Shown piece by piece: positions 1 to 4,174 of a stretch of DNA of 64,000 nucleotides. The DNA is taken from assembly GCA_023267375.1 (NCBI GenBank), contig JAHFNJ010000003.1:28579-92578 (forward strand), in the 5' to 3' direction. Source of the DNA: Candidatus Nomurabacteria bacterium. GTDB lineage: Bacteria > Patescibacteriota > Minisyncoccia > Phycocordibacterales > UBA9973. Positions within the stretch are counted from its first letter, which is position 1. Every line of letters begins with the position of its first letter. A program made the position numbers and the translations under genes. Below the pieces are notes generated by a model that was not told the DNA's origin, searched no databases, and saw only the letters and a list, made by a program, of their open reading frames with translations.

Positions 1-223
1 ATAGGAGACCAACCTGTCTCACGCACCTACCATCACTTATACTTTCGACGAAGAAAATATAAACGATTTTTCACACATTACTGTGTGGATTGGACTATAA
101 CTTCATCCTTTCGGATGTTTGACATTTAGTCTCTACGGGCATTTATTTTATGAATTTCACAGAAGAGGCAAGTAACTAATTTTACTCACCTTCAAAAATT
201 TAAATTACTAAAAAGTAATTTCG

Positions 224-298
224 TGGGAGCTACCGGGATCGAACCAGTGACCTTCAGATTATCAATCTGACGCTCTGGACCAGCTGAGCTAAACTCCC
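224..298 (-). tRNA. tRNA-Ile (anticodon GAU), discriminator A73, CCA not encoded
   Basis: Reverse complement GGGAGTTTAGCTCAGCTGGTCCAGAGCGTCAGATTGATAATCTGAAGGTCACTGGTTCGATCCCGGTAGCTCCCA folds as a canonical cloverleaf: 7-bp acceptor, D-stem GCTC/GAGC, anticodon loop TTGATAA, T-loop TTCGATC. It lies inside the 23S insertion. Confidence 0.85.
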
Positions 299-526
299 AA
301 TAACAAAGAACAAAATTTTCCTCTGTGAAACTCACAAAACTTATTTCCCTCGGTATTACCCTCGCTTGCGCGTTCGGGTTCCACCGATACTAGTCAACTT
401 CCTACACTATATTTCTATAATGCACCGCCGTGAAGAACGCCACAGCATTCTTACGGTCTAATCTCTTGTTTTAAAAACAATTGCTTTCACAATCTCTCGA
501 CGGGTTCAAACGGGTTCAGAACTCTA

Positions 527-600
527 GTTGCTAGGGGCTAGTTGCTAGGGGCTAGTGAAATTCACTAGAACCTAGGCACTAGAAACTAGAACCTAAAATG
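527..600. repeat. CTAG-rich ~75-bp repeat, copy 1, containing palindrome CTAGTGAAATTCACTAG
   Basis: Its reverse complement aligns over ~70 bp at ~80% identity with 39165-39237 (ttaggttctag…ttctagtgaattYcactagcccctagYaactagcccctag). Confidence 0.6.
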
Positions 601-917
601 CTGAACGGTTTGAACCCAGCTCGCGTATCTTTTTAATTGGCGAACAGCCAAACCCTTGGTAGCTTCTCCACCACCAGGATAAGATGAGCCGACATCGAGG
701 TGCCGAACTCCGCCGTCGCTATGAACGCTTAGGCGGAACTAGCCTGTTATCCCTAGAGTAGCTTTTATCCCTTAATCTTCCACCGCGTCTAATGCGGATG
801 GTCGGTTCACTTGGTTCTGCTTTCGCACCTGCTCGTCATGTACGACTTGCAGTCAAGCCAGCTTGTGCCCATACACTATCGGCACGGTTTCCATTCGCGC
901 CTAGCTGACCTTTAAAG

Positions 918-959
<42 letters not shown>

Positions 960-1267
960 CCCACCAGAAACTGTCTCTTCGAGTTTTTGCCTCGAGGATT
1001 AGAACATATCATAAAATAGAGTGGTATTTCACTGACGAGTAGAATACAGCCGAAACCGTAAACATCAAACCTCTCCCACCTATGCTACGCAATTTTCCAA
1101 TATGCTCAATATCAAGTTGCAGTAAAGCTTCTAGGGTCTTTTCGTCTATCTGCAGGTAACCGGCATCTTCACCGGTACTGTATTTTCACCGAGCTATTCT
1201 CCGAGACAGTTCCCCAGTCATTACACCATTCGTGCACGTCTGAACTTACCAGACAAGGAATTTCGCT

Positions 1268-1470
1268 CAACTATTCCTCTCAGTTGGACTCTCTCTTCAT
1301 CCCGATCGAAATCGGGAGCATGGCGTTGGTCTCTCGTTAACCATGAACGGACTAGCTGCACATTGCTGCGCAGTAGGTAGCGTTGTTTGTTGTAATGATT
1401 TTAAATTAATTGTTTATCGTTTTCTATAACAGTCCCAGTCCTTTGGTGCACATATAAATACATGTACCAA
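1268..1470 (-). other. ~203-nt insertion in 23S at the L1931-equivalent site; putative small group I intron or IVS
   Basis: E. coli-contiguous 'GGTCCTAAGGT|AGCGAAATTCC' is split: plus strand has 'gaatttcgct' (to 1267) then 203 nt then 'accttaggaccgttatagttacggcc' (from 1471). On the RNA strand the upstream exon ends in U and the insert ends in G. Confidence 0.45.
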
Positions 1471-1505
<35 letters not shown>

Positions 1506-3056
1506 CAGGGCTTGTATCAGTCAGCTGTTCTCTGCCTTGCGGCAGAAAACAACCGCCGATAGTTAACCTTCTGGCATTGGTCAGGTGTCACCCCCTATAC
1601 ATCCTCTTACGAGTTCGCAGGGAGCTGTGTTTTTGATAAACAGTTGCCAGGGATACTTTCGCTGCGGCCCCCCGCTACTTTAGATACTTCTATCATAAAG
1701 TAACGGAGAGTTTTTTGTCTCTTACTTTCTTACTCTCCCACTTTTTGGAATTACCCAAAGTAGCGGGGGGCAAGCCTTATTCCGAAGTTACGGCTGCTTT
1801 TTTGCCGAGTTCCTTGGAGAATACTCACTCGTTCGCTTTGGTCTACTCGACCTGACTACCTGTGTCGGTTTACGGTACGGTTTCTGAAATATTAAGCTTA
1901 GAGATTTTTCTTGGAAGCGTGCTTTATAGAATCATCATGGGCGAACCCACAAATTTATGCTCTGCTTGAATCTTCACATTAAAGTGATTGTATCCGGATT
2001 TTCCTAGACACCATTCTTACAGCACAAACAGAAATCCAATAATCTGCTCTATATACTACACTCCGTCCTCCCATCGCATATTTTAGAAGTCATGGAATAT
2101 TAACCATGTATCCATCGGGTGCGGCTTTCGCCATCCCCTTAGGACCGACTAACCCTTGGCTGATCAACATCGCCAAGGAAACCTTAGTCTTTCAGCGTGC
2201 AGGGATCTCACCTGCATTGCGGTTACTTGTGCCAACATTCTTACTTCCGCACGCTCCAGCATGGGTCACCCCTTTGCCTTCAACGCAGAGCGGAATACTC
2301 GCCTACCACTTATTCCGACCTAAGTCGGAAAAAATCCTCAGTTTCGGTACTATACTTAGCCCCGATTATCTGCGGTGCGAAATCTCTTGATGAGTGAGCT
2401 GTTACGCTTTCTTTCAAGGATGGCTGCTTCTAAGCCGACCTCCTCATTGTTTAAGAAATTTCACCTCCTTGACTTGCACTTAGTATAGATTTAGGGACCT
2501 TAAATAGAGATCCGGGCTGTTTCCCTTTTGACTAACGGAGCTTAGCCCCCGTAGTCTAACTGCTATGTTTTAACTTCTGGTATTCGGAGTTTGATAGATT
2601 TAGCGAGATTTCTCCCTGTCCAAATCTTCCAGTGCTCTACCCCCAGAGGGAACACATAACGCTAGCCCAAAAGCTATTTCGGCGAGAACCAGCTATTACC
2701 AGGTTCGATTAGCTTTTCACTCCAACCCACAAGTCATCCGAATGCATTGTACGACATACCGGTTCGGACCTCCTCTACCATTTCTGGTAGATTCATCCTG
2801 CTCATGGGTAGCTCACCTGGCTTCGGGTCTTATGTATGCTACTTATTGTTCGCGCTATTCACACTCGGTTTCCCTATGACTCCATTTTTTTAAAAACTTA
2901 GTCAGCAACATACATAAACTCGTTGGCTCATTCTTCAATAGGCACGCCGTGACGGTCTGCACTTCACGCAGAAAAAATTCTGCACAAAGTGCAAACCGCT
3001 CCGACTCCTTGTAAGCACATGGTTTCAGATCTATTTCACTGTCCTTATCGGACTAT

Positions 3057-3092
<36 letters not shown>

Positions 3093-4174
3093 ATCTCTAA
3101 GAGTATTTAGCCTTGCCGGTTAGTTCCGGCGGATTCCTCCGAGCTATTCGTGTCTCGAAGTACTCAAGAACGACAACAGAAGAGTCAGTAATATTTTCAC
3201 GTACGGGGCCATCACCCTCTTTGGCGTTGCTTTCCAGCAACTTCCGTTAATATACTGTTTTGTAACTCTCCTCGAATAAACGATGTTGTCGCCTTACAAC
3301 CCCGATTCTTTTTCTTGCGAAAAACAATCGGTTTGGGCTTCTCCGCTTTCGCTCGCCGCTACTTACGGAATACAAATTTGTTTCTTTTCCTCCAGGTACT
3401 GAGATGTTTCACTTCCCTGGGTGAGCGTCACTCTCTTGCGAGAGTAATTACTGAGGTTTACTCAGTAGGGTTTCCCCATTCAGAAATCTCCGGATCAAAG
3501 GTTACTCGGCACCTCCCCGAAGCTTATCGCAGCCACGTTACGTCTTTCATCGCCTCTTAGAATCTAGGCATCCACCATATGCTCTTGTTTCCTATTAGGA
3601 AACTTAAAAACCACATATATTTCTACAGACCGCTCCGTAGAGTATATGCATACACTTTACTTTTTTTGCCCTATCCTCGATGCGTCTGAAAAGACCCTAA
3701 AAACTTCCTGAAAATACAAGAAGTAATTGCACCGGAATAGGATTTACCCAACATTATTGCTTTTAAAAGCAATAATGTTATGGCTTATTTGTCAAAGAGA
3801 CTGGCATTCGATCATTATCACTACTTACTAAAAACTTCAGCCGAGGGAACTAAAAAATCGCCTTTCGGCGACATCTCAAAACGCAAGGTTTTGATTAGTA
3901 TCGCCTCGGTTTCTGTAATTTAGAAGTAATATTCATACAGCCCAAAGAGTATATAGGAAGCGAAAAGCGATGTCAAGTTTCTCTCGGTAGTCCCACCAAA
4001 AAGCACGAATATCTGCCTGCTGGCAGATTTCTCTACTCGAAACGCCTTTCTGCGTAAGGCTTTTTGCGGGACTACCTCGCTCTGGTGAGCAGAGCCTTAT
4101 TTCTTGATTAATGACTTCGATTAAGTTATCCACCATTTTATTCACATGCACAAATCTCTCTTTTTATGGCAAGC

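Follow-up and report, generated by a model that had tools for sequence, protein, structure and literature searches.

Introduction

Position L1931 of the 23S rRNA gene is a recurrent home of group I introns. Those known there from bacteria and organelles (Thermotoga, Simkania and Synechococcus) are 654–700 nt long, encode LAGLIDADG proteins and are IC1-like without P2 (PMC1995217). In bacteria of the Candidate Phyla Radiation (CPR), position 1931 is catalogued as '23IS7', a LAGLIDADG/group I site (Tsurumaki et al. 2024, PMC11270868). Here, we describe a 203-nt insertion at L1931 in the 23S rRNA gene of a Candidatus Nomurabacteria bacterium and present evidence that it is probably a group I-derived intron that has kept the catalytic core but lost the P4-P6 scaffold domain, which is considered universal. 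The gene lies in a 64,000-nt stretch of contig JAHFNJ010000003.1, which we call the window and to which the coordinates of the insert refer. The insertion shares its homing site with the LAGLIDADG introns but, unlike them, encodes no homing endonuclease, its longest open reading frame (ORF) being 46 aa. It also differs from the Synechococcus-type introns, which are IC1-like with a complex P5 and no P2, in having P2 and lacking P4-P6. In the 691-nt I-ShaI intron, the ORF occupies positions 83–604 (PMC11270868); compared by published description rather than by sequence, this location corresponds to a variable segment of the window intron that we term the C region.

Two other kinds of RNA invite comparison. 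Engineered group I ribozymes without P4-P6, derived from T4 td and Tetrahymena and known as the 'minimal catalytic domain' (Ikawa et al. 2000, cited in PMC2879505), consist of a P3-P7 (P3-P9) core without P5-P4-P6, as does the window element. They are laboratory deletions with ~1e-3 of full activity and no extra exon-binding helices, whereas the window element occurs naturally, is conserved throughout a phylum-level radiation and has extra helices of this kind. Intervening sequences (IVSs) excised by RNase III are, like the window insert, short ORF-less insertions in 23S rRNA. They differ in replacing hairpin tips (helices 25 and 45) and in forming a long stem from both ends; the window insert lies at a single-stranded junction, shows no pairing between its two ends and contains both a splice guide and a group I core. 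Tsurumaki et al. reported 469 ORF-less CPR 23S insertions with no Rfam hit to group I or group II introns, called them uncharacterised and suggested that they are RNase III IVSs (PMC11270868). The family described below probably accounts for part of this set. In the open-access literature that we searched, we found neither a natural group I intron without P4-P6 nor a description of this family.

Results

Site, boundaries and family of the insertion

The 23S rRNA gene lies on the minus strand of the window (Rfam RF02541), and its RNA is read from that strand. The large-subunit rRNA model leaves out ~206 nt between ...CGGUCCUA (also given as ...AACGGUCCUA) and AGCGAAAUUCC, and alignment to E. 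coli K-12 23S rRNA (locus L063) places a 203-nt insertion, window positions 1268–1470, exactly between U1931 and A1932, at the junction between helices 69 and 70/71. The plus strand reads gaatttcgct, then the insertion, then accttaggaccg; on the RNA strand, ...CCUAAGGU is followed by the insertion, UUGGUACAUG...AAUAGUUG, and then by AGCGAAAUUCC. The insert is preceded by an exon U and ends in G (omega-G), so that U1931 abuts its first base and G203 abuts A1932, and the terminal G is invariant in the 57 sequences aligned below. An initial annotation of the window had proposed an insertion of ~203 nt splitting the 23S gene at L1931, with an upstream exon ending in U and an insert ending in G; the E. 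coli alignment and the RNA-strand reading bear out these claims. Our ORF search found nothing credible overlapping the insert and no ORF longer than 46 aa. In Rfam scans, neither RF00028, the group I intron model, nor any other credible family matched at E ≤ 10 within window positions 1200–1540, and there was likewise no match at the gathering threshold.

To place the insert among relatives, we scanned one genome per GTDB species with the pattern ACGGTCCTAAGGT-N(188-218)-AGCGAAATTCC, which yielded 62 loci, nearly all from Patescibacteria. Fifty-six are homologous to the window insert, and the other six (Omnitrophota, Planctomycetes and one other) are small group I introns of canonical type. 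A metagenome scan with the 3' signature of the family, AGGAAT-N4-G-AGCGAAATTCC, gave at least 120 matches; among the 120 listed, ~14 are chance hits in coding DNA and the remainder are family members. Because 62 GTDB species genomes carry an insertion of 188–218 nt at the same junction, 56 of them homologous, and about 96 or more metagenome relatives join them, the insert is neither a chance feature nor an assembly artefact. The members that we analysed, at least 153, come nearly all from Patescibacteria/CPR and range from 189 to 461 nt, mostly 197–226 nt, with the extra sequence of longer members placed peripherally in the C region, P2, P8 or the P9.0 loop. In some members, 25–30 extra nt between the guide and the S element reflect a longer P8 and not a partial P4-P6. 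Apparent members of 788 nt are spurious and arise because GGTCCTAAGGT occurs a second time in the 23S gene; their true length is 222 nt.

The 23S exons of the window are nearest to those of Paceibacterota/Minisyncoccia metagenome-assembled genomes (MAGs; ~84–85% identity). One family member is found on a contig labelled as a Segetibacter sp. MAG (JANMZN010000445.1), but its 23S is 82.6% identical to the CPR 23S of the window, and a Nomurabacteria MAG (L033) carries almost the same intron; CPR sequence was probably mis-binned here into a Bacteroidota MAG. A 1571-nt metagenome contig (ERZ650310 NODE-20225) was considered as a possible ORF-bearing relative, as two ORFs (139 and 175 aa) precede a degenerate copy of the family 3' end. 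We set it aside because the contig starts with Illumina adapter sequence, the core is degenerate and the Pfam matches are all sub-threshold (a PvuRts1I-like endonuclease N-terminal domain, E 1e-3, and zinc ribbons); it is either an ORF-bearing relative or a chimera.

A group I core supported by covariation

We numbered the intron 1–203 on the minus strand (window coordinate = 1471 − i) and aligned 57 sequences with their exon flanks (alignment A1). An RNAalifold consensus and a hand-specified structure that includes pseudoknots agree. In the latter, 90.5% of cells are paired, compared with 32–43% when partners are slid, none of 500 shuffles reaches any of five measures, and 36 pairs have changed on both sides. 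RNAalifold independently recovers Pa, P2, P3, P8, P9.0, the helix between the 5' exon and intron segment B2, and the GCU:AGC pairing described below. Folded as a single sequence, the insert alone is undistinctive (z = −1.2); a fold with exon flanks was the first to show the exon:B2 helix (z = −2.9).

The elements of a group I core run from the guide to the terminal G. The guide GCUACCU (intron 90–96, window 1375–1381) is a perfect complement of the ligated exon junction. It is followed by P2 (intron 97–117, window 1354–1374), a hairpin in which 97–104 pairs with 109–117, all eight of eight pairs show two-sided changes, and the G, A and A of the G-N-A-A loop are invariant. P3 (126–130 with 148–152, window 1319–1345; two-sided changes in 5/5 pairs, 95.8% paired) encloses J3/7, UUAACGA, together with the 5' strand of P7. 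P8 (intron 154–171, window 1300–1317) is supported by three RNAalifold pairs, two of them with many double changes; in the window sequence, one extra base shifts its register in alignment A1. The S-element-like J8/7 (UGAAGAGAGA) and the 3' strand of P7, GUCC, occupy intron 172–185 (window 1286–1299), where GAGUCC is invariant. Across the family this segment reads GAAGA(U/G)AGAGUCC, close to a classic S element, and RF00028 aligns the corresponding segments of two introns that it does recognise, L047 and L074 (see below), to its own J8/7-P7.

P7 itself comprises G138-C185, a bulged A139, G140-C184, A141-U183 and C142-G182; it is 95.2% paired and invariant in the main type. Its G-C pair next to a bulged A matches the arrangement of the group I guanosine site. 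Beyond P7, main-type members have invariant non-Watson-Crick oppositions (C143/A181, A144/G180 and A145/A179), and a few members extend the helix to 6–7 Watson-Crick pairs (GACUAUA with UAUAGUC in L014, L044 and L050; GGCCAU with AUGGUC in L027). The insert thus contains a P3-P7 pseudoknot with P8 and a guanosine-site-like P7. The intron ends with the P9.0 hairpin (186–189 with 199–202; window 1268–1285; two-sided changes in 4/4 pairs, 97.2% paired), which carries the loop AGGAAU (193–198) and is followed directly by terminal G203 at window position 1268. Since the terminal G, GAGUCC, AGAGACCA, GCUACCU and AAGA have stayed invariant or nearly so while the helices turned over many times, sequence conservation argues for selection on catalytic elements in this family.

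The 5' part of the intron holds a separate domain. Its first element is Pa, a 12-bp hairpin beginning with intron base 1 (intron 1–28, with 1–12 paired to 17–28; window 1443–1470), which is variable in sequence, with two-sided changes in 10/11 pairs and 92.7% pairing. The long-range helix Pb joins segment B1, GGACU (intron 30–34, window 1437–1441), to segment D, AGUCC (intron 118–122, window 1349–1353); its strands are 97.5% paired and occur as GGACU/AGUCC, UGACU/AGUCA, UAACU/AGUUA and GGAUU/AAUCC. In L074, Rfam treats segment D as an insertion relative to a canonical J2/3. B2, an extra segment that binds the 5' exon (the GGGGACUGUUAUAG region; intron 35–47, window 1424–1436), leads into the A/U-rich C region (intron 48–89, window 1382–1423), which varies in length from ~20 nt in the shortest members to ~160 extra nt in L106. 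Alignments of the C region show two conserved motifs, GAUAAACA (intron 53–60, window 1411–1418) and UCAUUACA (intron 73–80, window 1391–1398), for which we found no pairing partner. We considered whether GAUAAACA might imitate the 5' exon within the intron and pair with B2, and rejected the idea, as there is no consistent covariation with exon or B2 variants.

Pairing of the intron with both exons

The partner of B2 is the 5' exon from −18 to −6 (CUAUAACGGUCCU; window 1476–1488), which corresponds to the loop and 3' strand of helix 69. The 13 complementary positions are 92.8% paired across the 57 sequences. In the genome set, the exon that faces B2 is invariant, but helix 69 variants occur in some metagenome lineages, and there the two partners change together: exon AUCGUCC is found with GGGACGAUU, AUUGUCC with GGGACA(G/A)UU and AUCGUUC with GGAACGAUU. 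B2 covaries with the exon at three positions. Position −8 is C-G in 148 members and U-A in 3; position −12 is C-G in 130, U-A in 13 and U·G in 7; and position −11 is G·U in 87, G-C in 15, C-G in 12 and U-A in 8, with a G/G opposition in 29. Every B2 group pairs best with its own exon type. These compensatory changes offer direct comparative evidence that B2 pairs with the 5' exon, and the covariation shows that the intron and the helix 69 sequences of the rRNA have co-evolved.

Helix 69 itself is unusual in some CPR lineages, with stems of the form GGCGAU...AUCGUC(C), GGCAAU...AUUGUCC or ...AUCGUUC compared with the near-universal GGCCGU...ACGGUCC (loci L066, L071, L072, L080, L096, L120, L123, L127 and others); the variant stem covaries both within the rRNA and with the intron. 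Two further loci, L039 (NZBM01000015.1) and L067, have AGCAAACGGUCCUAAGGU as upstream exon in place of CUAUAACGGUCCUAAGGU, owing to another insertion ~14 nt upstream, near L1917. Their B2 (AGGACCGUUAUAU) still fits the uninterrupted exon, implying that B2 could pair only after removal of the upstream element, in which case splicing would follow a set order.

The exon bases at the junction are paired by the guide. Its ACCU complements AGGU at 5' exon positions −4 to −1 (window 1471–1474), the exon strand of P1, with the 5' splice site after U1931 at window position 1471; this pairing holds in 99.6% of cells over the 57 sequences. Its GCU complements AGC at 3' exon positions +1 to +3, forming P10 (100% paired), which RNAalifold recovers unprompted; read across the two exons, the junction is AGGU followed by AGC. 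Because these exon bases are invariant, the evidence that the guide forms both P1 and P10 is one of conservation. The 3' exon is held a second time, as the P9.0 loop AGGAAU is complementary to AUUCCU at +7 to +12 (100% paired, invariant); the two 3' exon segments lie within window positions 1256–1267. At the 5' splice site, U(−1) faces A93; an A occupies this place in 134 scored members, and L074 is the only one with G.

Absence of P4-P6

Only UUAACGA (7–8 nt) separates the 5' strand of P3 from P7, and 52 non-redundant cores align without gaps from P3 to GAGACC. The window insert therefore lacks a P5-P4-P6 domain at this place. A canonical intron at the same site, L047 (Omnitrophota MAG JAGOOP010000008.1, 194 nt), holds ~65 nt of P4-P6 in this interval and served as a positive control, scoring 50.3 bits with RF00028 (gathering score 50; E 4e-12). 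L047 resembles the window intron in site, terminal G and want of an ORF, in a homologous guide and P2 (GCUAGCCUGCUUUGG... versus GCUACCUGCUUUG...), and in its R/S-type P7, P3', P8 and J8/7 (GAAGAUAUAGUCC). It differs in having P4-P6, a G·U wobble, a normal short P1 loop and a P9 hairpin, and in lacking Pa, Pb, B2 and the AGGAAU loop. It also reaches the Rfam gathering score, whereas the window insert gives no match. RF00028 misses the window insert because the P4-P6 domain is absent, and not because the group I core is. The initial annotation had suggested a group I covariance-model search as a check. That search is indeed negative, yet taken at face value it would wrongly have led away from a group I origin. 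The annotation also remarked that 203 nt is small for a group I intron; deletion of P4-P6 accounts for this size.

One member of the family retains the missing domain. L074 (metagenome contig Ga0208246_1001964, 278 nt) has Pa, B1/B2, Pb (GGAUU/AAUCC), a GNAA P2, an S-like J8/7 and P9.0 with the AGGAAU loop. Alignment A2 shows, in addition, a block of 57 nt placed exactly between its P3 and P7, and RF00028 matches this block to P4, P5 and P6 (49.7 bits, E 7e-12). The guide of L074 is GCUGCCU, giving a U·G wobble at the splice site. As L074 carries the 5' domain together with P4-P6 in the normal place, this sequence indicates that the 5' domain was added and did not arise by relocation of P4-P6. 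Starting from an ancestor like L074, losing P4-P6 and replacing the guide G by A would be the simplest route to the window type. Canonical introns read the wobble through J4/5, a part of P4-P6, and loss of the wobble fits with loss of the domain; the association between the two rests on one in-family sequence (L074) and the six outgroup introns.

We built a covariance model (R1) of the P4-P6-less core, which scores 64.4 bits for the window (1286–1351) and gives one strong match per family locus; weak second matches are ordinary ~L2587 introns with P4-P6. A search of 0.76 Mb with R1 for P4-P6-less cores at other rRNA sites found none, and only canonical ~L2587 introns matched, weakly.

A second intron and the rest of the 23S gene

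The initial annotation had noted two insertions in this CPR 23S gene, and the other is evident as well. Exon 2 ends at window position 605 (E. coli ~U2587), where a second intron of 581 nt (window 24–604, minus strand) interrupts the gene at ~U2587/C2588. It has canonical group I core motifs (RF00028 41.5 bits, E 4e-9, window 71–226). The 23S sequence resumes at window 23–1 (CGUGAGACAGGUUGGUCUCCUAU) and runs off the start of the window. Because the 3' exon resumes at position 23, the 3' end of the span assigned by the full Rfam 23S model (505–3598) is wrong. A tRNA-Ile(GAU) gene is nested in this second intron (window 223–298; Rfam 68.3 bits, also ARAGORN), between the strands of a P6-like stem, UUUCACAGAGG...CCUCUUCUGUGAAA. 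It is unusual for an rRNA intron to house a tRNA gene. Among 91 fetched loci in which both exon motifs are present, 69 carry 250–933 nt of inserted sequence at ~L2587. The nesting recurs, since the 933-nt insertion of one of them (L084, Ga0247841_10008574) also contains tRNA-Ile(GAU), the one other case. Tandem 14-nt repeats lie in the 5' part of the second intron, at window 524–556 and 563–589 (CTAGTTGCTAGGGG ×2.4 and CACTAGAAACTAGG ×1.9).

Compared with E. coli 23S, the gene also has helix expansions of 53, 43 and 32 nt on the minus strand at window 1695–1748, 3255–3298 and 2950–2982 (E. coli positions ~1729, 286 and 555, respectively), the first of which forms a long self-complementary stem. 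No 16S or 5S rRNA gene was found at the Rfam gathering score within the 64-kb window, and on that account the 23S gene appears unlinked from the other rRNA genes.

Discussion

We regard the site, the family membership, the helices, the exon pairing, the absence of P4-P6 and the descent from a canonical form as established for the window insert; the splicing and its manner we infer. Our preferred explanation, to which we assign a probability of roughly 60%, is that the insert is an ORF-less group I-derived intron that has kept its core, lost P4-P6 and the wobble pair, gained exon clamps and is removed by group I-type splicing. The parts that appear to be retained, namely the guide, P2 with its GNAA loop, the P3-P7-P8 core, the guanosine-site-like P7, the S-like J8/7, P9.0 and the terminal G, support the group I relationship proposed in the initial annotation. 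The parts that appear to have been gained make up the 5' domain: hairpin Pa, long-range helix Pb and the 13-nt B2. Because the guide, the terminal G, the P7 site and J8/7 have stayed fixed while the helices were rewritten, we think that the element is still removed by group I chemistry.

In the mechanism that we propose, B2 and the guide would clamp the 5' exon during synthesis of pre-23S rRNA, and the guide and the P9.0 loop would clamp the 3' exon, for ~26 bp of clamping overall. This clamping could stand in for the docking and scaffolding normally provided by P4-P6. The P3-P7 core would then perform two transesterifications, in which guanosine attacks after U1931, the exons are ligated and the intron is released at its terminal G. 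The ligated exons would read ...CCUAAGGU joined to AGCGAAAUU. A protein cofactor may assist. PMC2879505, citing Ikawa et al., reports that an engineered td ribozyme without P4-P6 keeps ~1e-3 of full-length activity, and on this basis chemistry without the domain seems feasible, perhaps with the help of a protein.

Several observations weigh against group I-type splicing of the window insert. A G·U wobble is nearly universal at group I 5' splice sites, but a U-A pair takes its place here, and P7 in the main type has only four standard pairs. P1, P10 and the pairing of the P9.0 loop with the 3' exon use invariant exon bases, which amounts to conservation and not covariation, and the ancestral state within the family depends on the single sequence L074. 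The ~1000-fold lower rate of the engineered P4-P6-less ribozymes (PMC2879505) raises the prospect that unaided self-splicing may be too slow. A Simkania intron at the same site was reported as unspliced, to judge by the title of Everett et al. 1999 as cited in PMC11270868.

The missing wobble, the failure of the Rfam model to recognise the insert and the ~1e3-fold slower engineered forms (PMC2879505) would also suit a catalytically dead group I relic, whose RNA merely folds and holds the exons while host proteins cut and join them, or only cut. An RNase acting with an RNA ligase, a maturase-like protein that serves as the scaffold, or RNase III-type excision that leaves a fragmented 23S rRNA could each do this, and Tsurumaki et al. 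suggest RNase III IVSs for CPR insertions that lack an intron hit (PMC11270868). We consider a dead relic unlikely, though it deserves serious attention, as excision by proteins has no obvious need of an invariant terminal G, a guanosine-site-like P7, an S-like J8/7 and a guide that spans two exons. The RNase III variant was also the fallback of the initial annotation. No terminal stem joins the ends of the insert in either single-sequence or alignment folds: the 5' end lies in Pa and the 3' end in P9.0, both covarying hairpins. Nor is L1931 a known IVS site, 23IS2 and 23IS4 having been equated with such sites but not 23IS7 (PMC11270868). With its ends not paired to each other and its guide and terminal G kept, the insert does not look like an RNase III-excised IVS, and we rejected that identification. 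An archaeal-type bulge-helix-bulge intron was rejected on similar grounds, as neither RNAalifold nor covariation reveals a helix linking the two junctions, whose bases are instead engaged in P1/Pa and P9.0/P10.

That the insert simply stays in mature 23S rRNA as an expansion segment strikes us as improbable. B2 sequesters the loop and 3' strand of helix 69, which forms an intersubunit bridge, and the P9.0 loop sequesters positions 1938–1943, so that the ribosomal fold would be blocked; retention also leaves the kept splice guide, terminal G and P7 site without explanation. Retention has a precedent at L1931 ('An unspliced group I intron in 23S rRNA', Everett et al. 1999, cited in PMC11270868), but insertions in CPR rRNAs are removed from transcripts according to Brown et al. 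2015, as summarised in PMC11270868. A last possibility, and in our estimation a long shot, is a canonical group I intron in which an equivalent of P4-P6 has gone unrecognised in Pa, Pb or the C region, by rearrangement and not loss. The 5' domain of ~90 nt is large enough to house one, and it holds conserved unpaired motifs with no assigned role. Opposed to this, L074 combines the 5' domain with a canonical P4-P6 in its normal place, just ~20 nt lie between B2 and the guide in the shortest members, and Pa varies freely in sequence and length.

A natural, conserved family of group I-derived introns without P4-P6 would have several implications. The idea that P3-P7 is the minimal, perhaps ancestral, catalytic unit rests on slow engineered deletions (PMC2879505), and such a family would give it a biological test case, as well as a ~200-nt system in which to ask how clamping of the substrate replaces a folding scaffold. 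A bolder version of our proposal makes the element a true self-splicing ribozyme. It would then be the first natural group I intron shown to work without P4-P6 and the G·U wobble, by means of ~26 bp of exon clamping and the 5' domain. We hold this version only tentatively, at somewhat less than even odds. Were it true, the long exon complement would make the element an efficient reverse-splicing parasite of the L1931 site, and reverse splicing could account for how it spread among CPR lineages in the absence of a homing endonuclease. More generally, because the family is invisible to the standard Rfam model, censuses of rRNA introns in CPR bacteria would undercount introns of group I descent.

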